From Erysipelotrichaceae bacterium (lineage in GTDB: Bacteria; Bacillota_I; Bacilli_A; Erysipelotrichales; Erysipelotrichaceae): DNA of 32,000 nucleotides. The stretch is from NCBI GenBank assembly GCA_030604855.1, contig JAUVVC010000002.1, positions 60,001 through 92,000 of the forward strand, given 5' to 3'. Both the position numbers and the translations under genes were made by a program. The first letter of the stretch is position 1, and every line of letters starts with the position of its first letter. The notes beneath the pieces were generated by a model. It was not told the origin of the DNA. It made no database searches and was given only the letters and a program-made list of their open reading frames with translations. Of this stretch, positions 9,767-27,966 are shown piece by piece.

Positions 9767-11092
9767 TTGATACAGTTAAAAAACATCAAAAAGAACTACA
9801 CCAGTCGTAAAGGTGTCGTGACACGTGCTTTGAATGATCTGAGCGTGTCCTTCCCAAGCTGTGGTTTAGTTTTTATTTTGGGTAAGAGTGGTAGTGGAAA
9901 ATCAACTTTGATGAACATTTTGGGTGGTTTGGATACAGCAGACAGTGGTGAATTCATCATTGAAGGGAAGAATATCGAAGGTTTGAGTCAGGTTGAATTG
10001 GACCATTATCGAAATGCGCATGTTGGTTTCGTTTTTCAGGACTTTAACATCATTGAGACTTTTTCGATTTATGAGAACATCGGTTTGGCGTTGCAACTGC
10101 AAGGTCAGAAGGCATCAAAGAAACGAATCGATGAGATCCTTGAATTCGTGGGTTTGAAAGATTACGGTAAGCGTAAAGGAAATGAGATCTCGGGTGGTCA
10201 GAAGCAGCGTATCGCGGTTGCACGTGCTTTGATTAAGAAACCCCGGATCATTTTAGCAGATGAACCGACGGGAAACTTGGATAGCAAAACAAGTGATCAA
10301 ATCATGCAGTTATTGAAGGAAGTGTCGAAGACGAATTTGGTCGTCATCGTATCACACGATCCGGAAGAAGCTGAACTTTACGCAGACCGCATCATCAGAA
10401 TCAAAGATGGTAAGTTGGCAGAAGACACAGGCAAGGATCCTGTTGATTTCGATCATCAGCCTTTCTCATTCGTGCATCAACATTTAGGGTTCTGGGCGAG
10501 TTTCAAATATGGCATTCACAGTATCTCACGCAAGAAAGGTCAACTCTTGATCACGACTTTCGTCATTGCGATCGCCATGTTGTTTGCGTACCTCTTAGGT
10601 GCTTACTTGGGATTTGTGGATCAACCGAATCCTGTTCTGTTGAACATGTTAAGTCGAGCGGAGCTGGCATTCTTGAGTCAGGACCTTCAAGGTTATCTTC
10701 CATCGGACTCTGCATTTCAGCTGAATATCGCCATGTACGTCATCTTTGTGGCGGTCACCTATGTCTTTCTTTCAATGAGTGTCACCCAACGTAAGAAGCA
10801 AATTGGGATTTTTAAGGCATTGGGTGGAAACACCCATGACATCTTAAGGATCTTCATCTGGGAAGGTGTCGTGATCGCATTCTTTTCTTGGATACTCGCA
10901 ACCTATTTAGGCTATGCGTATGTCCTTGATATCAATATCAAGTTCTTCAACGCTTTACCTGTTCTCGTCTTCAATTGGCTACAGGCTGGTTTGAATCTCA
11001 TACTTATTTTTGCCGTAAGCATCAGTTTCATCGTTCTTACAGTATTGGGAATCCTTAAAAACAACTCCGTGATTTCCATACTGAAGAAGTAG
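9767..11092 (+). CDS. Fused ABC ATPase plus FtsX-type permease (MacB-like, lacking the large extracytoplasmic domain)
   Basis: TTG start with a GAGGGG RBS. The NBD carries GKSGSGKST, SGGQKQR, ILADEPTGNLD and SHD motifs. Four predicted TM helices follow, with only a ~37-aa loop between TM1 and TM2, and an FtsX signature RKKQIGIFKALG. Confidence 0.85.
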   Translation: MIQLKNIKKNYTSRKGVVTRALNDLSVSFPSCGLVFILGKSGSGKSTLMNILGGLDTADSGEFIIEGKNIEGLSQVELDHYRNAHVGFVFQDFNIIETFSIYENIGLALQLQGQKASKKRIDEILEFVGLKDYGKRKGNEISGGQKQRIAVARALIKKPRIILADEPTGNLDSKTSDQIMQLLKEVSKTNLVVIVSHDPEEAELYADRIIRIKDGKLAEDTGKDPVDFDHQPFSFVHQHLGFWASFKYGIHSISRKKGQLLITTFVIAIAMLFAYLLGAYLGFVDQPNPVLLNMLSRAELAFLSQDLQGYLPSDSAFQLNIAMYVIFVAVTYVFLSMSVTQRKKQIGIFKALGGNTHDILRIFIWEGVVIAFFSWILATYLGYAYVLDINIKFFNALPVLVFNWLQAGLNLILIFAVSISFIVLTVLGILKNNSVISILKK

Positions 11093-11101
11093 GAGTCCAC
11101 C

Positions 11102-13132
11102 ATGATTGAAATCAGTAATATCAATAAAAAATATACCAGTAAAACGAAAGAGGATGTTTTGGCAATCCAAGATGTCAATCTCAAGTTCAACACAACAGGT
11201 TTGGTTTTCATTTTAGGGAAGAGTGGCAGTGGGAAATCAACGTTTTTAAATATCTTGGGAGGTTTGGATTCCGCGAACACCAGCCGTATCTTCATCAATG
11301 GTAAGAAGCTCAATCGTTTCAATGAGACAATCTTATCGGAGTATCGCAATACCTACATCGGCTTTGTGTTTCAGGAATACAACCTCTTGGATAATTTGAA
11401 CGTTTATGACAATGTCGCACTGGCGTTGGAGATGCAGAATAAGGTTGTGGATCCAGATACCGTCAAAGATATCTTGAAAAAAGTCGATCTGGAAGGTTTT
11501 GAAGAACGTGAGTTGGATGAACTTTCTGGTGGCCAGAAACAACGTGTCGCTGTGGCACGGGCCTTGGTCAAGAATCCTGAGGTCATTCTTGCGGATGAGC
11601 CAACTGGAAACTTGGACAGTGAGACCTCTGAGCAAATCTTTGAGTTATTCAAAGAAATCAGCAAGAAGAAGTTGGTCATCTGTGTATCCCATGATGCGGA
11701 GTATGCATATAAATATGCGGATCGCATCATCGAAATCAGTGATGGTCGTGTCATTCGGGATACCCAACCCGATGTGGTGGATGATGATTATCTGGCACCG
11801 GAGATGATCCGACCGGTCTTACCGAATAAATTCGTGTTGAACATGGGCTTGGGCAACATCTTGAATAATAAATTGAGGATGATCGTGACTTCGGTCATCG
11901 TAGCCTTCCTGATGGCGATTCTAACGGCTGTCTATGCGACCTTAAGTGTTTCACCGAGTGTGGACATGGAATTATTTAAAGCCAGTAAGATGAATCATCT
12001 GTGGATGACATCACGGAACAGTGAGACGATTTTGATTGAAGGGGACCGTTTGGTCAAGATTCAAACCGTCTTACCAGATTATGGTGCTCTGTTGTACAAA
12101 CGCCAAGCTATTGTTGAGAATGGGACTTTGCTTACGATCAATGCGTTGCCGTTGACTCTGGATGCGAACAGTCTACAGAATCCACTCACACGCACTTTAG
12201 ACGCCGGTAAAGTGGATGTCATCAAGGCTTTACCCTTGCATTTTGTCGAAGCAGGTGTGGGTAGTCATCTCTATGATGATTTGATTGGAAATGAACCAAG
12301 CAATAATCAAGAAGTCGTCATTTCAAGTTATCTAGCGGATCTCTTCATTCGCAGTGGTATGCTTGTCGAAGGCGAAATGCAGCGTTTCACCAGTTATCAA
12401 GATTTGATTTCGAAAGCCCCCGTCATACGTTTAGGGGAAAGTATGAATCTCAAAGTCGTGGGTATCATGGAACATGAGACACCGGTATTGAACAATGAGA
12501 CCATCGCCTTGGAAACGGTCTACTCAAATCTTTATGTACAACGCGGGTTCCTTGCAGCGTCAAGTAAGGAATATCAATTGATGAGTTATGGCATCTTTGT
12601 GACAAATGTCGCAAGTCTACCTGACTTGTTTAAGGGTGTCAAGAATGCAGGTTACATCAATCTCAGACCGATCTATTCGGATACACTTCAGAATTTCACC
12701 CGTTTCGAGTTGGCTTTGTTGATTTCGGTCATCGTACCCTTGATTGGTTATCTGGCTTTGGTCTTTTTGGCCAACTACATCTCCAGCAGTATCCTTTATC
12801 GTAAGAAACAGATCGGAATCTTGCGTGCTTTGGGAAGTTTCATCAGCAATGTCGAACATGTCTTCCGTTTGGAAGCCATCATCGTTGGATTCTTCATCAT
12901 GATCATGGCTTATTTTCTAACCCCGTATTTCGTGGATGTGATGAATTTCGCTTTCATGGTCTACTTTAAAGAAAGTTTCATCTCATTTTATCATTTCTCC
13001 GTCTTCTCGATGGGTTTTGGCAAGATTGTTGAGATTTTCTTACTGCTCAGTGTATTGATTACGATCTTGACGTTCACTTTGACCAACAATATCAATCTGA
13101 TTGATCCGGTCGATGTCATCAATGGACGTTAA
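11102..13132 (+). CDS. Fused ABC ATPase plus FtsX-type permease with large extracytoplasmic domain (MacB architecture)
   Basis: 676 aa with a complete NBD (GKSGSGKST, LSGGQKQR, ILADEPTGNLD). TM1 is followed by a ~260-aa extracytoplasmic region and then three TM helices with RKKQIGILRALG. An AGGAG RBS lies 9 nt after the upstream stop. Confidence 0.85.
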   Translation: MIEISNINKKYTSKTKEDVLAIQDVNLKFNTTGLVFILGKSGSGKSTFLNILGGLDSANTSRIFINGKKLNRFNETILSEYRNTYIGFVFQEYNLLDNLNVYDNVALALEMQNKVVDPDTVKDILKKVDLEGFEERELDELSGGQKQRVAVARALVKNPEVILADEPTGNLDSETSEQIFELFKEISKKKLVICVSHDAEYAYKYADRIIEISDGRVIRDTQPDVVDDDYLAPEMIRPVLPNKFVLNMGLGNILNNKLRMIVTSVIVAFLMAILTAVYATLSVSPSVDMELFKASKMNHLWMTSRNSETILIEGDRLVKIQTVLPDYGALLYKRQAIVENGTLLTINALPLTLDANSLQNPLTRTLDAGKVDVIKALPLHFVEAGVGSHLYDDLIGNEPSNNQEVVISSYLADLFIRSGMLVEGEMQRFTSYQDLISKAPVIRLGESMNLKVVGIMEHETPVLNNETIALETVYSNLYVQRGFLAASSKEYQLMSYGIFVTNVASLPDLFKGVKNAGYINLRPIYSDTLQNFTRFELALLISVIVPLIGYLALVFLANYISSSILYRKKQIGILRALGSFISNVEHVFRLEAIIVGFFIMIMAYFLTPYFVDVMNFAFMVYFKESFISFYHFSVFSMGFGKIVEIFLLLSVLITILTFTLTNNINLIDPVDVINGR

Positions 13133-17198: not shown

Positions 17199-18131
17199 AT
17201 GGCAAAAATGGCAACTCGTGAAGCCTACGGTAAAGCGTTGGCTGAACTCGTCTGTGAGAATCCTAAAGTCGTCGTATTGGATGCGGACTTGAGCAAGTCC
17301 ACCAAGACCGCCGATGCGAAAGCCGTCTGTCCGGAACGTCACTTTAATGTGGGCATCGCAGAAGGCAATATGATGGGGATCGCGGCGGGTTTAGCGACCT
17401 GTGGCAATATCGTCTACGCAAGCTCGTTTGCGATGTTTGCGGCAGGACGTGCGTATGAACAAGTGCGCAACTCTATTGGGTACACCCATCTGAATGTGAA
17501 GATCTGTGCGACACACGCAGGCATCACCTTGGGTGAGGATGGGGCCTCCCACCAATCCATTGAAGACATCGCCTTGATGCGCAGTATTCCTGGCATGACG
17601 GTCTTACAACCGAGCGATGACATCGAAACGAAACAGATGATCAAAGCGATCAGTGAAATGAATGGGCCGTGTTATGTGCGCTTAGGAAGAAGTGCTGTAG
17701 AAACCGTTAACGCAGAAGATTACAAATATGAATTGGGCAAGGGTGTCGTTCTTCGTGAAGGCAAAGACATCACGTTGATTGCCACGGGCATGATGGTTCA
17801 AGAAGCGATGAAAGCAGCTGCATTATTGGCTGAACAAGGTATCGAAGTTTCTGTCATCAACATCCATACGATCAAACCTTTGGATGAAGCACTTATCTTA
17901 AAATATGCTCAACGTTCCAAACTGGTCGTGACCTGTGAGGAACACTCGAAGTTTGGTGGTTTGGGTTCTGCAGTAGCGGAAACCTTGAGTAAGAATCATC
18001 CTACCAAGATGGCGATGGTGGCCATCAATGACACCTTTGGTGAGAGCGGGACACCCGCTGCACTGATCGAGAAATATGGCTTGACGGCGAAAGATGTCTT
18101 CAACACTGTAATGAATTCCATCCAACCTTAG
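17199..18131 (+). CDS. tkt: Transketolase, C-terminal (pyrimidine-binding) subunit
   Basis: 310 aa with FNVGIAEGNM and GEDGASHQSIEDIA blocks. It starts 3 nt after the N-terminal subunit's stop. Confidence 0.92.
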   Translation: MAKMATREAYGKALAELVCENPKVVVLDADLSKSTKTADAKAVCPERHFNVGIAEGNMMGIAAGLATCGNIVYASSFAMFAAGRAYEQVRNSIGYTHLNVKICATHAGITLGEDGASHQSIEDIALMRSIPGMTVLQPSDDIETKQMIKAISEMNGPCYVRLGRSAVETVNAEDYKYELGKGVVLREGKDITLIATGMMVQEAMKAAALLAEQGIEVSVINIHTIKPLDEALILKYAQRSKLVVTCEEHSKFGGLGSAVAETLSKNHPTKMAMVAINDTFGESGTPAALIEKYGLTAKDVFNTVMNSIQP

Positions 18132-18148
18132 CATTGCTAAGGTTTTTT
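18124..18148 (+). terminator. Intrinsic terminator after transketolase, overlapping its stop codon
   Basis: CCTTAGC-att-GCTAAGG followed by TTTTTT. Confidence 0.7.
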
Positions 18149-18160
18149 AATGCATAAAAT

Positions 18161-18189
18161 TTGAATATTCCAATTTTAAGTGATACAGT
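18161..18189 (+). promoter_or_regulatory. Candidate sigma-A promoter of the B12-domain/LolCDE-like operon
   Basis: TTGAAT (18161-18166), 17-nt spacer ending in TGa (extended -10), TACAGT (18184-18189). It lies just downstream of the tkt terminator. Confidence 0.45.
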
Positions 18190-18227
18190 TTAATGGTTAA
18201 TAAGCTTAACTAATAAAGGGGGTTCAC

Positions 18228-18860
18228 ATGCCACTATTTGAAGAGTTTAATCGTGCATTTCAAGCTTTGGATCAAGAACACTGCATCCAATTGACGTATG
18301 ATGCTTTATCCAATGAAATCATCAGCGTTGAAGACTTATATGAGAATGTATTACGTAAAGCGTTATCGGTACTGACGGATAAAGAGACGGATCCCACTCA
18401 CAAGATCTGGAGAGAGCATGTTCAATCGTCCATAGTTCGAACCATCATCGAAATGACCTATCCTTTTGTCATAAAACAACGCATTGAGATTTTAAATAAA
18501 AAAGCTGCTGTCGTATGTCCGGATGGTGAACAACATGAATTGGGTGCGCGCATGGTCAGTGACTATCTGAGGATGCTCGGGTATGAGACCTATTTTGTAG
18601 GACGAGATACACCCCGTTTGGAGTTTTTGGACATGATCAAGACCTTGAACTTGGATGTCGTGGCCATCAGTGTCACCAATTACTACAATCTATCCAAAGC
18701 GCTTCAAACCGTTGTGGATGTCAAAGAGCATTTTCCGGAAGTGACTTTGGTTGCGGGTGGACGCGGCTTGGATGCGAATGCGGAAGTCTTGGTTAAGCAC
18801 GATGTCTTGATCACCCATGATCTTAATGATTTGAAGCGTATTTTAGGAGGAAACGCATGA
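18228..18860 (+). CDS. Stand-alone cobalamin-binding-domain protein (helical cap plus Rossmann B12 domain, CarH-like, no DNA-binding domain)
   Basis: 210 aa with no signal peptide or TM helix. An N-terminal helical region contains an REH dyad. The ExHxxG variant of the lower-ligand motif (GEQHELG, nt 18528-18545) is followed by VVAISV and LVAGGRG blocks. Its stop overlaps the next gene's start (ATGA). Confidence 0.7.
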   Translation: MPLFEEFNRAFQALDQEHCIQLTYDALSNEIISVEDLYENVLRKALSVLTDKETDPTHKIWREHVQSSIVRTIIEMTYPFVIKQRIEILNKKAAVVCPDGEQHELGARMVSDYLRMLGYETYFVGRDTPRLEFLDMIKTLNLDVVAISVTNYYNLSKALQTVVDVKEHFPEVTLVAGGRGLDANAEVLVKHDVLITHDLNDLKRILGGNA

Positions 18861-19996
18861 AACTCGCTTATTCAATTGCCAAGCGTTTTCTTGGTTATAA
18901 CAAAGGTCAGACGATTCTGATTGCGGTGGGCATCGCAATCGGTGTTTCGGTACAGATCTTCATCGGTCTATTGATTACAGGTCTGCAGGACAGTTTGATT
19001 GATAAGACGGTCGGCAGCACACCCCACATCACGATCACGCAAGAAGATGAAACAAGTTTTGAAGAATTCATGATTGATGGCGGCTCATTTACTGCGGTCG
19101 CGTATCAAGCGGAAGGTCCGGCGTTTGCCTTAAGTGAGAATGACGATGCGTCTGTCTTGCTTAGAGGTTTGAGTGCCGATGGGGATAAATTATACAAATT
19201 AAGCGAGAAATTGATCGAAGGCAGGATGCCAAGCGCAATGAACGAAGTCATCTTGGGTTCAGGCCTGTCGGAAAAGTTGGATGTGAGCTTGAATGATGAG
19301 TTGACATTGCGGACCATAACGAATCAAAGTGTTGTAGTGAACATCGTAGGCATCGTCGATCTCAAAGTCGATGCCATCAACAATTCCTGGGTCTTAGCAA
19401 CCTTAGCAACGGCACAAAGTCTATTCGAACTCAAGGATGAGATCACATCCATCGCCATCCAAGTCGAAGATGTGTTTGAGGCCGATGTCTTGGCGGAAGG
19501 GATCATGACATTTGAGCGTGTGAATGAGCAGAATTTGAGCGTTGTGAACTGGAAGGATCAGAATGAAGATCTCTTAAGTGGTTTGAATGGACAAAGCATC
19601 TCAAGCCTCATGATCCAGGTGTTTGTCTTGGTCTCTGTGGTTTTGGGCATCGCCAGTGTTCTTGCGATCACCGTCTTACAAAAATCAAAGCAAATCGGTA
19701 TTTTGAAAGCTATGGGCATCACAGATAAGACAGCCAGTTGGATCTTTTTGTTTCAAGGTTTATTGCTGGGATTCTGGGGTGCGATCCTTGGGGTATTGTT
19801 TGGGGTGGGACTGCTCTTATCCTTTACAACTTTCGCACGAAATCCAGATGGTAGTGCATTGATTCCAATCGCTTTTGATCCTGTGTTCATCGCATTCTCA
19901 GGTTCCATCGCCATTTTTTCAGCATTGCTTGCGTCTTTCATACCTGCTCAACGTTCGAAGAAGTTGAGCCCAATCGAGGTCATTCGCAATGGATAA
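18857..19996 (+). CDS. LolC/E-like FtsX-family ABC permease with extracytoplasmic domain
   Basis: 379 aa. TM1 is followed by a ~210-aa extracytoplasmic domain and three C-terminal TM helices with KSKQIGILKAMG. Confidence 0.85.
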   Translation: MKLAYSIAKRFLGYNKGQTILIAVGIAIGVSVQIFIGLLITGLQDSLIDKTVGSTPHITITQEDETSFEEFMIDGGSFTAVAYQAEGPAFALSENDDASVLLRGLSADGDKLYKLSEKLIEGRMPSAMNEVILGSGLSEKLDVSLNDELTLRTITNQSVVVNIVGIVDLKVDAINNSWVLATLATAQSLFELKDEITSIAIQVEDVFEADVLAEGIMTFERVNEQNLSVVNWKDQNEDLLSGLNGQSISSLMIQVFVLVSVVLGIASVLAITVLQKSKQIGILKAMGITDKTASWIFLFQGLLLGFWGAILGVLFGVGLLLSFTTFARNPDGSALIPIAFDPVFIAFSGSIAIFSALLASFIPAQRSKKLSPIEVIRNG

Positions 19997-20678
19997 TATT
20001 CTAGAACTTAAAAACATTACAAAATTCTATGGAGACAAAATCAAGACGCAGGTTCTCTTTGGACTGGATTTAAGCTTTGAACGTGGTAGTTTCAACTCGA
20101 TCATTGGACAATCTGGGAGTGGCAAGAGTACCTTGTTGAATATTCTAGGAACCTTGGATCGTCCCACGGATGGAGATATCATCATCAATGGAAAGAACAC
20201 GAAAACATTGAATGCGAATGCATTGTCTCAATTACGCAATGAGAACCTTGGTTTCATCTTCCAATTCCACTATTTGTTGCCAGAGTTCACAGCGTTGGAA
20301 AACATCTTGATGCCGGTCCGTATCTTAGGCAAGAAAATCGATAAAGAAGTTATGGCTCGTGCAGAAGAGTTGATTGAACTGGTGGGTTTGAGCAAAGTCA
20401 AAAACAACTTGGCAACTCAGATGTCCGGTGGTCAGCAACAACGCACAGCCATTGCACGTGCTTTGATGAATCAAGCCAGCATCATTCTTGCGGATGAACC
20501 AACGGGCAATTTGGATTCCGATACGACCGAACAGATCTATGATTTGATGCGCATGATCAATAAGAAATATCAAACGACATTCATCATCATTACGCATGAT
20601 CAAAGTGTGGCCGAAAAGACAGATCGCATCATCGAGATCAAAGATGGTCGAATTTTGATGGATGTTCGGAAGAAATAA
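19989..20678 (+). CDS. LolD-like ABC transporter ATP-binding protein
   Basis: 229 aa with GQSGSGKST, the LolD-type block FIFQFHYLLPEFTALENI, MSGGQQQR and ILADEPTGNLD. It overlaps the permease by 8 nt. Confidence 0.88.
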   Translation: MDNILELKNITKFYGDKIKTQVLFGLDLSFERGSFNSIIGQSGSGKSTLLNILGTLDRPTDGDIIINGKNTKTLNANALSQLRNENLGFIFQFHYLLPEFTALENILMPVRILGKKIDKEVMARAEELIELVGLSKVKNNLATQMSGGQQQRTAIARALMNQASIILADEPTGNLDSDTTEQIYDLMRMINKKYQTTFIIITHDQSVAEKTDRIIEIKDGRILMDVRKK

Positions 20679-20719
20679 TCAAAATCAATCAAAAACAATC
20701 AAATAGTTAAAGAATATGC

Positions 20720-20747
20720 TTGACATATTCCTTTTTTTGCTTAAAAT
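20720..20747 (+). promoter_or_regulatory. Candidate sigma-A promoter of the fructose operon
   Basis: TTGACA (20720-20725), 16-nt spacer, TAAAAT (20742-20747). Confidence 0.55.
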
Positions 20748-20764
20748 AAAGCTATAAATCCTTA

Positions 20765-20784
20765 TAAACAATCATAAACAATCA
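20765..20784. repeat. Perfect tandem direct repeat TAAACAATCA x2; candidate FruR (DeoR) operator
   Basis: Two adjacent 10-bp copies lie between the -10 element and the EIIA RBS. A 12-nt AAACAATCAAAT copy recurs at 20693-20704, upstream of the -35 element. Confidence 0.4.
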
Positions 20785-20806
20785 AATACAGTCAAAGGAG
20801 AACAGA

Positions 20807-21253
20807 ATGTTAATCACAAAGGAAAGTATCTTACTCGATTGCGCTATCAAAGATAAAGAGCAGATCATTCGCAGAATGGCGAGTCATGCGTTGCAGATCA
20901 ATCGCATCACGGATGTTGAGCCCTTTGTTCAAGCAGTCTTGCATCGTGAGGGTGAGTTCAGCACGGGTGTAGGGTATGGCATCGCGATTCCACATGGAAA
21001 ATCAAATGTCGTACGAGAGGCATTTGTGTTATTCTGTCGGGTCGATCATGTGGATTGGTCGTCCTTGGATGGCACAGATGTCGATATGGTGTTTATGATT
21101 GGTGTCCCTGAGATGGATACGAGCAATGAACACTTGAAAATATTGGCCTTGTTGTCTCGCAAACTGATGAAGGATGAATTCCGTCAAGCTTTGCGCAACG
21201 CACTACATGAAGATGAGATCATGGAAATCCTTAAGAAATGGGAGATCATCTAA
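20807..21253 (+). CDS. PTS EIIA component, fructose/mannitol (EIIA-2) type
   Basis: 148 aa with the phosphorylatable-His block GYGIAIPHGK. An AAGGAG RBS precedes it. Confidence 0.85.
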   Translation: MLITKESILLDCAIKDKEQIIRRMASHALQINRITDVEPFVQAVLHREGEFSTGVGYGIAIPHGKSNVVREAFVLFCRVDHVDWSSLDGTDVDMVFMIGVPEMDTSNEHLKILALLSRKLMKDEFRQALRNALHEDEIMEILKKWEII

Positions 21254-24452: not shown

Positions 24453-25889
24453 ATGAACTTTATGAAACGAGCTTTTTTAAGCTTGATACGCCGCAAAGGA
24501 AAGTCATTGATTCTTTTGGTCATTATTTTCATCTTGAGCAACGTCATGGCGGGATCGATCGCAATCGGTCAAGCATCCCGTAATGTCGAAAAAACCATGA
24601 AACAACAACTGGGAGCGAATGCGACGGTTGAGATGGATTGGGAAAAGATGCAGAACTGGACAGAGGAACAGTGGCAGAATATCCAATATGTCACACCTTC
24701 GATGGCCGATCAGATCGGTGCTTTGCCGTATGTGAAGTACTACGATTACAATTCGGAAGCGTACATCAATTCAACGACATTGAAAATGTATGATCCAAAC
24801 ATGATGGACCAACAGTATAATTACTTTCCACTGAGAGGGGTTAATTATGCCCCGGTTTTGGATATTGCGAATGGAACGGCTGATCTGGTTGAGGGACGTG
24901 TTTTCAGCGATGAAGATATTGCCAAGGCCAATTATGTGGTTTTGATCTCGGATAAACTCGCAGAACAGAACAATCTTTTTGTCGGTGATATCGTTATGTT
25001 GAATAATGAGATTCGAATTTGGGATCAGGCTACGAACCAAGAATCTGTGTTTGCAACGCGTGATATCGCATTGGAAATCATTGGGATCTTTAGCCCGAAA
25101 GTCAATACCAATCAAGAAGAAAATGGAGGTTGGATCGATTATACACCTTTCAATCGGATGTATGTCCCAAATGGTGTGGTTCATGCGGAAAACCGTTGGA
25201 TGACGGAACAATACATGATTGCCTATCCAGATTCAGGCATCACACCGGACCAATTGGAACGTGTATACATCAATCCGGTCTTTGTGTTGAACAATCCTGA
25301 AGAAGTTGAAAGTTTTAGAACCGAAGCGATGACCTATCTACCGGATTACTATAAAGTCAATGTTTCCAGCGATGCCTATGATTCCGTTGCAGGTCCGATT
25401 AAATTCATCGGTTCCTTGTCCAACACCATTCTTTATGTGGCGATCGGGGCAACGATCTTGATACTAAGTTTGGTTGTCATTCTCTTCTTGAGAGATCGTA
25501 AACATGAGTTGGGAATCTACTTATCCTTGGGTGAAAGCAAATCCAAAGTCATGGCTCAAATTTTGATTGAAGTCGTGGCGATTGCGGTCTTGGGCATCAC
25601 CTTGTCCTTGTTCACCGGTAACAGCATTGCGGAGGCCACCTCGCAATCGATGATGGATCTCAGAGCAGGCATTGAAGGGGATGGACCAGATGGACCGATT
25701 TATCGTGATTCAATGATCTACAACCCAGGGGGCATCACGGAAGAAGATGTGATGGAAGCCTACAGTATTGAGTTCTCTTGGGATTATGTCTTGATTCTGT
25801 ATGGTGTTGGTGTGGGTACGGTCTTGTTGTCAAGCATCGCACCAATGATCTATATTCTTCGTTTGAAACCGAAGAAGATCATGATGTAG
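24453..25889 (+). CDS. FtsX/MacB-type ABC permease with large extracytoplasmic domain
   Basis: 478 aa. TM1 (LILLVIIFILSNVMAGSIAIG) is followed by a ~280-aa extracytoplasmic region and three C-terminal TM helices with DRKHELGIYLSLG. A GAGGAGG RBS precedes it. Confidence 0.85.
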   Translation: MNFMKRAFLSLIRRKGKSLILLVIIFILSNVMAGSIAIGQASRNVEKTMKQQLGANATVEMDWEKMQNWTEEQWQNIQYVTPSMADQIGALPYVKYYDYNSEAYINSTTLKMYDPNMMDQQYNYFPLRGVNYAPVLDIANGTADLVEGRVFSDEDIAKANYVVLISDKLAEQNNLFVGDIVMLNNEIRIWDQATNQESVFATRDIALEIIGIFSPKVNTNQEENGGWIDYTPFNRMYVPNGVVHAENRWMTEQYMIAYPDSGITPDQLERVYINPVFVLNNPEEVESFRTEAMTYLPDYYKVNVSSDAYDSVAGPIKFIGSLSNTILYVAIGATILILSLVVILFLRDRKHELGIYLSLGESKSKVMAQILIEVVAIAVLGITLSLFTGNSIAEATSQSMMDLRAGIEGDGPDGPIYRDSMIYNPGGITEEDVMEAYSIEFSWDYVLILYGVGVGTVLLSSIAPMIYILRLKPKKIMM

Positions 25890-25898
25890 GAGGGTGTT

Positions 25899-26573
25899 AT
25901 GGAAATCATCAGAGTTGAAAATCTAAATTATTACTATCAGGATGGTGAGACGATTCGTACCATTCTTAAGGATTTGACCGTATCGTTTGAAAAAGGTAAG
26001 TTCTACACGATCTTGGGACCTTCTGGCTGTGGTAAGACGACGTTTTTATCCTTGTTGGCCGCTTTGGATGAACCAAAGTCTGGAACCATTTATTACAACG
26101 ATAAAGACATCAAAGCGATTGGGTATGAGAAGTATCGTCGGAACATGATCAGCATCATCTTTCAAAGTTACAACTTGGTCCCTTACATGACGGCGGTTGA
26201 GAATGTCATGATTCCAATGGCCATCACCGAGAATGAGATACCCAAGAACAGCAAAGAAGTTGCTTACAACCTCTTGGACTATATCGGTTTAACCAAGTCT
26301 AAAGCCAATCGTGTCGTCAATAAGCTCTCCGGTGGTGAGCAACAACGTGTGGCAATCGCGCGTTCACTTGCAAGCAACGTCGATATCATCTTTGCGGATG
26401 AACCGACCGGAAACTTGGACCAAGAGCTTGAAAATGAAATCATTGGTGTTTTTAAAGATCTGGCGCATCATCACAATAAGTGTGTCATCATGGTCACGCA
26501 TTCCAAAGAGATTGCGGACATGTCTGATGTCTCTTATCAGTTGCGGAAGGGAGTGTTGAGTCATAATGAGTGA
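25899..26573 (+). CDS. ABC transporter ATP-binding protein (MacB/LolD-like NBD)
   Basis: 224 aa with GPSGCGKTT, LSGGEQQR, IIFADEPTGNLD and VTHS motifs. A GGAGGG RBS precedes it. Confidence 0.9.
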   Translation: MEIIRVENLNYYYQDGETIRTILKDLTVSFEKGKFYTILGPSGCGKTTFLSLLAALDEPKSGTIYYNDKDIKAIGYEKYRRNMISIIFQSYNLVPYMTAVENVMIPMAITENEIPKNSKEVAYNLLDYIGLTKSKANRVVNKLSGGEQQRVAIARSLASNVDIIFADEPTGNLDQELENEIIGVFKDLAHHHNKCVIMVTHSKEIADMSDVSYQLRKGVLSHNE

Positions 26574-27966
26574 TTTCTTAAGTAAGTTCACCAAGTCTGA
26601 GTACGATAAAACGGTGGAGGAAAAAGAAGTCATGACGCAAACAGAGCCACCGCGTAAGAAAGAAGACAAAGAAGATAAGAAGTCTAAAGAAGAAAAGAAA
26701 AAAGAGAAGAAGCTTGCGAAGCAAATGGAGATGGAAGCTGAACTGCTTGAGGAACCCAAACCTGTTGTCGTGAGTGCACGTAGAAGTTCCCACATCGAAG
26801 AAACGACTATCGATCCGAGTTATAAAGCCAATCAACGTAAGAAGTGGATTGGGGCGATCGTAGCTGTTGTCTTGTTCGTGGCTTTGGGAACAGCGTTCTA
26901 TTATTTCATCAATCAAGTCAAGATTCCAGATTATGTTGGAAAACCAGTATCCGAGTTGAAGGCTTGGGCAAATCGCAACGATGTGACTTTGGAAATCACT
27001 GAGGTTTTCTCACTCGAAGTCTCTAAAGATTACATCATTTCATTGGATCCTTTAGCCAACTCGAAGATTCAAAAAGGCTCGAACATGAGCGTTGAAATCA
27101 GTAAGGGTGCGGATCCGGATGAGCAGATTTTGGTTCCGGACTTCACGGGAAACACGTACTTTCAGATTCAAGAATGGCTGAGTTCAAATAAGATCAATAA
27201 TCTTCGCATCACCTATGAATACCATGATGAGATACCTGCGAATGAATTTGTACGCATCGTGTTCAATGATAAAAACATCAAACCTGAAACTTACACACGT
27301 AAAGATTATGGTTTGATCTACATATCGAATGGACCTGAAGTGTTCACACCGAACATTGAAGTACCAGACTGGACGACCGCACATCAGGATGTGAGCATCG
27401 TTCAAGCTTGGGCGAATCAGAATCAAATTGATTTGACGGTTGTCAAAGTAAGTTCGAATGTTGTGGTGGGTGGAGTTATTTCGCAAAGTGTCGCTCCAAA
27501 GACAATGGTTGCGAAAAAATCAAAGATGACCATTACCATTTCACAAGGTGAAGAAGTCATCGTCCCTGATTTCTCTAAAATCAAAAAGGATGATGCGGCT
27601 TCGATGAGCTCGAGTGGTTACACCTTGCGTTTCGTCGAAATGTATCAACCTAAAGGTGGCGCAACATTTGGTAGTCTGATTTGGCAAGATGTCAAAGCAG
27701 GTACGAAAATCAGCCCAACGAGTACAAAAACTGTTGTGGTCACAGTCTACTACTCCTTAGGTCAGCCGTATTTGACAAAGCTTGGAAGTGAAAGAGAAAT
27801 TCCTGAGTTCATCTACAACGAAAACTTGAAGTCCGCAAATTTCACGTATGAAGTTCAATACGTGAGTGATGTGGCGGATAAGGGCACAATCATTGAGATG
27901 TTGCCATCCAATCAGTTCGTTGATCCAGGTCAACACATCATTTTTAAAGTTTCAACGGGCAGTTAA
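26566..27966 (+). CDS. Single-pass membrane protein with 4-5 extracellular PASTA repeats and a K/E-rich cytoplasmic tail; no kinase or transpeptidase domain
   Basis: 466 aa with a cytoplasmic low-complexity K/E tract (aa ~27-63) and a TM helix WIGAIVAVVLFVALGTAFYYFI (nt ~26845-26910). Repeats start at VKIPDY, ILVPDF, IEVPDW and VIVPDF and end in S-x-G (nt 26917-27762). A degenerate fifth unit follows. The start overlaps the ATPase stop by 8 nt. Confidence 0.75.
   Translation: MSDFLSKFTKSEYDKTVEEKEVMTQTEPPRKKEDKEDKKSKEEKKKEKKLAKQMEMEAELLEEPKPVVVSARRSSHIEETTIDPSYKANQRKKWIGAIVAVVLFVALGTAFYYFINQVKIPDYVGKPVSELKAWANRNDVTLEITEVFSLEVSKDYIISLDPLANSKIQKGSNMSVEISKGADPDEQILVPDFTGNTYFQIQEWLSSNKINNLRITYEYHDEIPANEFVRIVFNDKNIKPETYTRKDYGLIYISNGPEVFTPNIEVPDWTTAHQDVSIVQAWANQNQIDLTVVKVSSNVVVGGVISQSVAPKTMVAKKSKMTITISQGEEVIVPDFSKIKKDDAASMSSSGYTLRFVEMYQPKGGATFGSLIWQDVKAGTKISPTSTKTVVVTVYYSLGQPYLTKLGSEREIPEFIYNENLKSANFTYEVQYVSDVADKGTIIEMLPSNQFVDPGQHIIFKVSTGS

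Follow-up and report, generated by a model that had tools for sequence, protein, structure and literature searches.

The DNA analysed here (the window) is a stretch of 32,000 nucleotides (nt) from an Erysipelotrichaceae bacterium, corresponding to positions 60,001 to 92,000 of contig JAUVVC010000002.1. It carries a cassette of three genes, encoding a stand-alone protein with a cobalamin-binding domain (CBD), a permease of the type VII ATP-binding cassette (ABC) transporters, and an ABC ATPase of the LolD/MacB type (Table 1). An earlier reading, made from the letters without database searches (the sequence-only reading), had described three overlapping open reading frames (ORFs), and direct inspection bore this out: the CBD stop codon and the permease start codon share a 4-nt ATGA (gcATGAaa, 18857-18860), and the permease and ATPase genes share the 8 nt ATGGATAA (19989-19996). 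An AGGAGG Shine-Dalgarno sequence for the permease is located at 18845-18850, within the 3' end of the CBD gene. ORF calls, here and at all loci described below, are our own.

As the sequence-only reading had it, the CBD protein consists of a helical cap and a Rossmann-type B12-binding domain and has no helix-turn-helix (HTH) domain: residues 92-187 match Pfam family PF02310 (B12-binding) with 50.9 bits (E 1.7e-13, cut-off 32.1), Pfam detected no HTH and no other domain, and the protein starts with the cap. An AlphaFold2 model with a predicted local distance difference test score of 88.8 also shows a helical cap and a Rossmann fold. With its Pfam family PF02607 the cap scored 21 bits against a cut-off of 23; the model shows a helical bundle in this region, and Foldseek alignments of about 210 columns include it. 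The classic His-on motif is D/ExHx2G/P-x41-SxT/V-x22-27-GG (PMC9304148), and in the window protein we found E101-x-H103-x-x-G106 followed, after 41 residues, by S148-V-T150 and, after another 26, by G177-G178. Both stretches that had been singled out from the sequence, GEQHELG (residues 100-106) and W61-R62-E63-H64, are present and sit in invariant family columns, which in an alignment of 30 CBDs spanning relatives down to 34% identity include W61, E63, H64, E101, H103, G106, G125, T128, P129, S148, G177 and G178. In addition, a loosened version of the B12 motif was used to gather 123 short CBDs from the window and the 160 loci described below; this relaxed pattern, being the criterion of collection, is found in 123 of 123, and the strict spacing in 87. 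The invariance of the His-on columns is good indirect evidence for corrinoid binding, and we consider it probable that the CBD of this family binds a corrinoid.

A word-indexed search returned 380 relatives of the CBD, nearly all of 205-220 amino acids, and a hidden Markov model (HMM) search of 1.84 billion representatives gave 159 clusters at E <= 1e-30, nearly all stand-alone and of the same size. At 50% identity the cassette family amounts to about 160 clusters across Bacilli, Clostridia and relatives. Hits longer than the rest were explained by mis-called starts, by a frameshifted tail, or as proteins combining an HTH or unknown domain with a Wx9EH motif. Annotations of the homologues at source were generic or wrong ('MtbC1', 'MerR family light-induced regulator').

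The permease matches PF02687 (FtsX) with 59 bits and PF12704 (MacB_PCD) with 44 bits, and the ATPase matches PF00005 (ABC_tran) with 113 bits, all above their cut-offs. A four-helix transmembrane FtsX module, a MacB-like extracytoplasmic domain and a separate, LolD-like cognate ATPase are what the cassette has in common with LolCDE/LolDF and the rest of the MacB, or type VII ABC, superfamily (FtsEX, HrtBA, BceAB). By sequence, the nearest solved structures are LolF, LolE and LolC for the permease, with MacB also among the neighbours; the ATPase is closest to LolD, with 216 bits compared to 197 for MacB. None of the NCBIfam Lol models was reached (LolD, 267.2 bits against a cut-off of 307.75; lolCE, 137 against 362.45), in agreement with the earlier view of a Lol-like transporter that is no genuine Lol system. 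Unlike LolCDE and LolDF, moreover, the cassette belongs to Bacillota, without a LolA/LolB context; these hosts, Erysipelotrichaceae and others, are regarded as monoderm. That the cassette has only one permease gene points to a homodimer like that of LolDF. What sets the cassette apart within the type VII superfamily is the cobalamin-binding accessory, which in the literature searched is described for none of its members, and we know of no ABC transporter of any kind with such a protein. Full-text searches found nothing linking a B12-binding domain with FtsX, MacB or Lol transporters, or a stand-alone CBD with an ABC transporter.

Loci were retrieved from two directions, with the CBD first (best 80 genome loci) and with the permease first (best 80 metagenome loci, all hits at least 46% identical). 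The CBD-retrieved loci come from Erysipelotrichaceae, Carnobacteriaceae, many Clostridia, Izemoplasmatales and others. Permease and then ATPase genes follow directly 3' of the CBD gene in 74 of about 75 genome loci with enough downstream DNA, and a CBD gene lies directly 5' of the permease gene in 68 of the 77 metagenome loci with room upstream, so that, whichever gene is used for retrieval, about 90-99% of informative loci agree in gene order. In 110 of 111 loci the CBD stop overlaps the permease start, most often by 4 nt, or is separated from it by no more than 15 nt, and such stop-start coupling is the signature of a co-translated unit. Synteny outside this genome had been set beforehand as a test of the idea that CBD and transporter belong together, and it holds very strongly in both search directions. 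We therefore have little doubt that the cassette is a functional unit. The sole exception among the genome loci (L066:5947-7775, a Bathyarchaeota metagenome-assembled genome, MAG) has no transporter and has a convergent gene of the URO-D family (MtaA-like or UroD). Another MAG labelled archaeal (Promethearchaeota, L058) has a complete bacterial-type cassette, which could reflect horizontal transfer or a binning contaminant. Several cultured organisms carry the cassette, among them Clostridium amylolyticum DSM 21864, Proteiniclasticum aestuarii, Fundicoccus ignavus DSM 109652, Alkaliphilus serpentinus and Pseudobacteroides cellulosolvens.

With respect to the origin of the CBD, sequence and fold bear out the side taken by the sequence-only reading: its nearest solved relatives are the CBDs of B12 photoreceptors and not methyltransferase corrinoid proteins. 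The family profile matched the CBD of CtMerR (8JBS) with an E value of 2.8e-15, and only with CtMerR and the photocobilins did it align both cap and Rossmann domain; with corrinoid proteins and MetH it aligned the Rossmann part alone. Foldseek gave CtMerR (8JBS), photocobilins (8J2W/8J2Y) and CarH as best matches, with TM scores of 0.7-0.84. The E63-H64 pair aligns with E166-H167 of CtMerR, which is an element of the light-responsive CBD signature (PMC11796333). AerR (7TE2) was matched with E 0.06 by the single sequence and 2e-4 by the profile. A neighbour-joining tree, whose outsiders were restricted to 18 CBDs that are HTH-linked or have Wx9EH (CtMerR and photocobilin fragments among them), separates the 120 cassette CBDs from these as a monophyletic group.

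Membership in the CarH/LitR class is a different matter. An intact Wx9EH motif defines a CarH-type CBD (PMC9304148), and the Trp of Wx9EH/GxxW is reported to be crucial for adenosylcobalamin-specific binding and for CarH photoreceptor function (PMC9304148; PMC11796333). SignatureFinder describes a four-part signature of light-responsive CBDs, namely GxxW, EH, GxxH and GxxxP (PMC11796333). The window protein has EH, GxxH (G100..H103, of which the Gly is not conserved across the family) and GxxxP (G125..P129, invariant), and GxxW is absent: as noted from the sequence, the canonical Wx9EH spacing is not conserved, the position of the CarH Trp aligning with E53 (T50..E53), where there is no Trp. 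The accompanying proposal that ExHxxG plus Glu-His is the CarH signature was insufficient, since the published signature needs the Trp of Wx9EH/GxxW that is missing here (PMC9304148, PMC11796333), and Glu as opposed to Asp before the His does not separate the classes, as CtMerR carries DLH. Together with the intact Wx9EH, an N-terminal MerR-type DNA-binding domain is lacking, and the NCBIfam CarH equivalog scores 36.8 bits against a cut-off of 400. Assignment to CarH/LitR thus fails on a defining feature that was tested, which lowers the likelihood that the protein works like a B12 sensor. The accessory CBD forms a clade of its own and is best seen as a member of the CarH-like lineage of photoreceptor CBDs that has diverged, with a remodelled cap. 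The ranking of NCBIfam models was dropped as a means to tell photoreceptors from corrinoid proteins, since MtgC outscores CarH on a canonical Wx9EH neighbour. One CBD, from a Senegalia MAG (L075:5992-6654, + strand), is the only stand-alone cassette CBD with a Trp at both -10 and -2 relative to EH (FWEDESYHVWKEH); it nests within the family in the tree and could represent a retained ancestral state or a reversion.

To characterise the neighbourhood, ORFs near the cassette were clustered and then scanned against family models. A crtI-family desaturase and a squalene/phytoene synthase lie beside the cassette in 11 loci, a class-2 photolyase in 6, UvsE in 6, DUF2177 in 5 and SRAP in 5, and a glutathione peroxidase gene is directly 5' of the cassette in 6 (raw locus numbers). 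These light and stress genes (crt, photolyase, UvsE, DUF2177, glutathione peroxidase) are spread over several families and are mostly on the cassette strand; in Proteiniclasticum, the photolyase gene comes directly after the ATPase gene and shares its operon. Carnobacteriaceae have the order crt-crt-tetR-CBD-permease-ATPase, Oscillospiraceae and Eubacteriales the order photolyase...crt-crt-x-DUF92-CBD-permease-ATPase. A TetR gene is directly 5' of the cassette in about 10 loci. At three loci (L056:4434-5950, L062 and L068), an unassigned 216-residue membrane protein and a DUF92 membrane protein are encoded between the phytoene/squalene synthase and CBD genes; plant DUF92 (VTE6) we take to be a phytyl-phosphate kinase, and the neighbour could serve prenol salvage for carotenoid synthesis.

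Eleven loci contain a complete gene for an extra N-terminal domain joined to a CBD with intact Wx9EH. In nine this domain is an XRE-type HTH (HTH_3), and one further locus (L088) has a partial XRE-CBD gene. The XRE-HTH+CBD genes are head-to-head with the cassette and their products retain GxxW-x9-EH, making them candidate CarH-like photoreceptors with an XRE-type in place of the MerR DNA-binding domain; we came across no report of CarH homologues of the XRE type in the literature searched. The CBD of these XRE proteins is a paralogue of the stand-alone CBD (24% identity, E 1e-11). The two remaining proteins (L096:896-1957 and L112:897-1952, both - strand) have about 350 residues, with an unassigned 145-residue N-terminal domain before the Wx9EH CBD, and proteins like them are found among the HMM hits (P0242, P0250, P0258, P0262).

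The head-to-head intergenic regions share a 7-1-7 palindrome, ATCACAT-N-ATGTGAT, as a candidate operator, and a GTGAT/GTGGTA half-site over the -10 element of a strong TTGCAA-17-TATTAT promoter. The palindrome core is enriched, being present in 10 of 116 cassette upstream regions and 30 of 5191 background windows, and it also precedes the cassettes of L024, L075, L134 and L160, where no regulator is in view. In the lineages with the head-to-head regulator and the shared operator, the cassette is therefore very probably light-regulated. At L088, L106 and L122 the HTH-CBD regulator faces the permease gene directly and there is no stand-alone CBD, an arrangement which makes the transporter itself the light-linked element. 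Lineages thus seem to differ, having the transporter under an HTH-CBD photoreceptor (transcriptional control), with a stand-alone CBD, or with both. Another 7-1-7 box, resembling Fur/PerR sites (e.g. TAATAATGATTATCC), is enriched as well: 10 of the 116 upstream regions have it, compared with 179 of 10382 background windows. It is restricted to a minority of the loci and is missing from the window; in L022, L021, L024, L074, L104, L106 and L122 it lies 25-230 nt 5' of the first cassette gene, between promoter and start codon, which hints at additional peroxide or metal control.

In the window, the split transketolase (tkt) genes upstream end in a terminator-like hairpin (18124-18144 proper, followed by the T-run) that is kept in six other loci (L001, L004-L007 and L009) of an Erysipelotrichaceae alignment. 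The sequence-only reading had placed a promoter for the cassette directly after this terminator. The terminator holds; the candidate promoter scores 8 of 12 and so falls below the scan threshold of 9, yet its -35 TTG.A and its -10 position are conserved between the window and six related Erysipelotrichaceae loci (seven-sequence alignment). Between the -10 and the CBD Shine-Dalgarno sequence is the inverted repeat GTTAATAAGCTTAAC, a candidate operator and the sole site of its kind in the window, of which GTTAA..TTAA is kept in seven of the seven aligned loci. The ATCACA palindrome is not present in the window's own promoter; a GTGATA sequence resembling its half-site overlaps the -10, which may be chance. 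Downstream, the stretch 20680-20800 contains a strong promoter-like TTGACA-16-TAAAAT (20720-20747) for an operon of a fructose phosphotransferase system (PTS), DeoR and 1-phosphofructokinase, with repeated AAACAATCA / AATCAA motifs, possible regulator sites, on either side. As listed, the DeoR ORF starts at 21174 and shares 80 nt with the EIIA gene; this start was probably called too early. Two further FtsX/MacB-type ABC systems lie at 9767-13132 and 24453-27966, both without a CBD.

Table 1. Positions of the cassette, its flanking elements and related features (L numbers are our labels for loci outside the window)
Locus	Position	Strand	Feature	Basis or remark
Window	18228..18860	+	Stand-alone CBD protein, 210 amino acids	ORF call, Pfam, AlphaFold2, family alignment
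Window	residues 1-83 of CBD protein		Helical cap	Domain/structure analysis
Window	residues 91-206 of CBD protein		Rossmann domain	Domain/structure analysis
Window	18857..19996	+	Type VII ABC permease (MacB_PCD extracytoplasmic domain and FtsX four-helix transmembrane module), 379 amino acids	Nearest LolF/LolE/LolC
Window	19989..20678	+	LolD/MacB-type ABC ATPase, 229 amino acids	8-nt overlap with permease gene
Window	18124..18152	+	Intrinsic-terminator-like hairpin and T-run closing the split tkt genes	9-bp stem, then TTTTTTAATG
Window	18161..18189	+	Candidate cassette promoter	-35 TTGAAT 18161-18166, 17-nt spacer, TG 18181-18182, -10 TACAGT 18184-18189
Window	18196..18210	.	Inverted repeat, candidate operator	GTTAATAAGCTTAAC
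Window	9767-11092		ATPase-FtsX fusion	No CBD
Window	11102-13132		676-residue ATPase-containing protein	No CBD
Window	24453-25889		MacB_PCD+FtsX permease	No CBD; ATPase next
Window	25899-26573		ATPase	After MacB_PCD+FtsX permease
Window	26566-27966		PASTA-domain protein	After ATPase
L022	4886-5764	-	XRE-HTH (HTH_3)+CBD	
L033	4451-5347	-	XRE-HTH (HTH_3)+CBD	
L038	4966-5859	-	XRE-HTH (HTH_3)+CBD	
L044	4901-5779	-	XRE-HTH (HTH_3)+CBD	
L097	1096-2139	-	XRE-HTH (HTH_3)+CBD	
L104	858-1748	-	XRE-HTH (HTH_3)+CBD	
L106	1581-2447	-	XRE-HTH (HTH_3)+CBD	
L113	2316-3197	-	XRE-HTH (HTH_3)+CBD	
L122	782-1669	-	XRE-HTH (HTH_3)+CBD	
L022	5765-5982		Intergenic region with candidate operator	
L038	5860-5995		Intergenic region with candidate operator	
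L044	5780-5990		Intergenic region with candidate operator	
L088	891-1050		Intergenic region with candidate operator	
L106	2448-2719		Intergenic region with candidate operator	
L113	3198-3355		Intergenic region with candidate operator	
L122	1670-1846		Intergenic region with candidate operator	

We tentatively read the cassette as a type VII ABC transporter that has its own accessory or sensor subunit, a cobalamin-binding protein, and is used in photo-oxidative stress. The accessory would most likely hold a corrinoid in the His-on form via H103, covered by a cap with the retained Glu and His that in CarH touch the upper ligand, and would dock on the ATPase or on the cytoplasmic face of the transporter. 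The state of the cobalamin would then switch the ATPase cycle, either through light-driven loss of the upper ligand or through the form or availability of the cofactor, such that the transporter runs when light or photo-oxidative stress reaches the cell; its substrate may be a damaged lipid or a photosensitiser embedded in the membrane. In this scheme we infer cobalamin binding, light sensitivity, contact with the transporter, direction of control and substrate alike, and its parts are not equally secure. A role in light or oxidative stress is slightly favoured for the family as a whole and less so for this genome. Direct post-translational action of the CBD on the transporter is something we infer with reserve, as a possibility that falls short of an even chance, and it is doubtful that light is the signal. 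The most specific version, in which the CBD is a genuine cobalamin photoreceptor with a rebuilt upper-ligand pocket (W-x-E-H for W-x9-E-H) that binds the LolD-like ATPase and directly gates the transporter, appears unlikely.

The likeness to CarH/LitR and to group 2 CBDs (CtMerR, 8JBS/8JBT; photocobilins, 8J2W/8J2X/8J2Y) lies in the cap over the Rossmann domain, the His-on motif and the aligned Glu-His, and loci with photolyase and carotenoid genes are also reminiscent of CarH regulons. On the other hand, the family CBD has no DNA-binding or output domain and carries its Trp two residues before EH, and in contrast to CarH/LitR it forms a separate monophyletic clade whose constant partner is an ABC transporter instead of DNA. 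Several observations weigh against a light-linked sensor subunit. In 119 of the 123 family CBDs the Trp at -10 is missing and a Trp is found at -2 instead; CarA of Myxococcus shows the same combination of EH and B12 motif without the Trp, and it acts independently of B12 (PMC9304148). The cap match falls below the PF02607 cut-off. No fusion of the CBD to ABC or other domains was found among the best 150 of 7473 HMM hits, and genes may be co-transcribed without their products forming a complex. Of the 77 permease loci, nine have no stand-alone CBD; three of these nine have a divergent HTH-CBD regulator, and one each has a gene for an HlyD-like adaptor, MarR and TetR. The neighbour counts ignore shared ancestry. 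Lastly, the window and L001-L009 have tkt upstream and the fructose PTS operon downstream, with no light genes in the 32-kb window and no ATCACA palindrome in the window or L001-L009. The link to light that the sequence-only reading had suggested is thus backed by the gene neighbourhoods of other lineages and finds no backing in the window's own Erysipelotrichaceae clade.

A different explanation would be that the CBD handles cargo, picking up corrinoid, free or photolysed, or a different tetrapyrrole in the cytoplasm for the transporter to expel or relocate in the course of photosensitiser detoxification or corrinoid trafficking. The intact His-on B12 site and the light-stress genes in the same operons would fit, hydroxocobalamin is phototoxic, and MacB-type pumps have been connected with tetrapyrroles (HrtBA with haem, MacAB reported for protoporphyrin IX). 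However, LolF/E/C are closer to the permease than HrtB or MacB, an Rfam scan at gathering thresholds detected no cobalamin riboswitch in the window and 22 loci, and genes for B12 synthesis or salvage are not among the recurrent neighbours. To our knowledge, type VII ABC transporters work at the outer face or leaflet, and no path is known by which they could take a hydrophilic cargo of 1.3 kDa from the cytoplasm. We regard cargo handling as improbable.

The CBD could also be an AerR-like co-regulator that is merely co-transcribed with the transporter and acts on the XRE-HTH+CBD paralogue, through hetero-oligomers, or on the TetR of Carnobacteriaceae. Precedent exists in AerR/PpaA, a stand-alone CBD that signals by protein-protein contact (PMC9144470), and suitable partners are at hand in some loci, with TetR directly upstream in about 10 and a Wx9EH HTH-CBD-type gene adjacent in 11 plus the partial one of L088; that the two kinds of CBD are paralogues would fit hetero-oligomers as well. 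Most loci, the window included, have no adjacent DNA-binding partner, and the invariant partner is the permease, with its stop/start overlap. AerR is only a weak match, and its partner in phototrophs is CrtJ/PpsR, a type of regulator that we did not find in the window or in most loci. Such a co-regulator therefore seems quite improbable.

Very unlikely, in our judgement, is a cofactor-independent subunit, in which the CBD would have lost its dependence on B12 in the manner of CarA and serve as a structural or scaffolding accessory of the transporter. The family shares with CarA of Myxococcus xanthus the B12 motif and EH in combination with a lost Wx9EH Trp (PMC9304148), and its cap has diverged, with 21 bits for PF02607 compared to 44-55 bits in the Wx9EH neighbours. 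Yet CarA is a repressor with a MerR DNA-binding domain, unlike the stand-alone, transporter-tied CBD of the cassette, and the B12-site residues of the family are invariant over a wide phylogenetic range. Invariance of H103, G106, S148, G177, G178 and E63-H64 in the 30-sequence alignment, with which the 123-member survey agrees, is hard to explain without ligand-related selection. Finally, that the CBD is an ordinary methyltransferase corrinoid protein (MtaC/MtbC-like) with partners elsewhere and the transporter an unrelated neighbour, as might be read from the JGI label 'methanogenic corrinoid protein MtbC1' on several homologues, from NCBIfam scores of 34 bits for MtbC and 37 for CarH (a ranking that is uninformative at this distance) and from the transporter-less homologue beside a URO-D-family gene in the archaeal MAG of L066, can practically be dismissed: it is largely refuted by synteny and translational coupling with the ABC genes, no methyltransferase gene is among the recurrent neighbours in 160 loci, and corrinoid models, with cut-offs of 215-450 bits, score no higher than 34 and match nothing but the Rossmann part.

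B12 photoreceptors control transcription, as do CarH/LitR and AerR, and more recently they have become known as fusions to enzymatic or bilin-binding domains. What appears to be new here, on the strength of the comparisons above, is a CBD of the CarH lineage with a new partner and a remodelled cap. Conservation this strong means that the cassette has a real, so far uncharacterised function, and the existence of cultured carriers makes the question directly testable. If the CBD senses light or the state of its cofactor, the cassette would show how non-phototrophic anaerobes tie light stress to envelope physiology and what role Lol-like transporters have in bacteria without an outer membrane, and it would provide a compact green-light switch for membrane transport, usable in optogenetics. 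Were direct light gating to prove true, nature would have provided a first example of an ABC transporter gated by light, and for the first time a B12 photoreceptor would have a membrane machine, not transcription, as its output.

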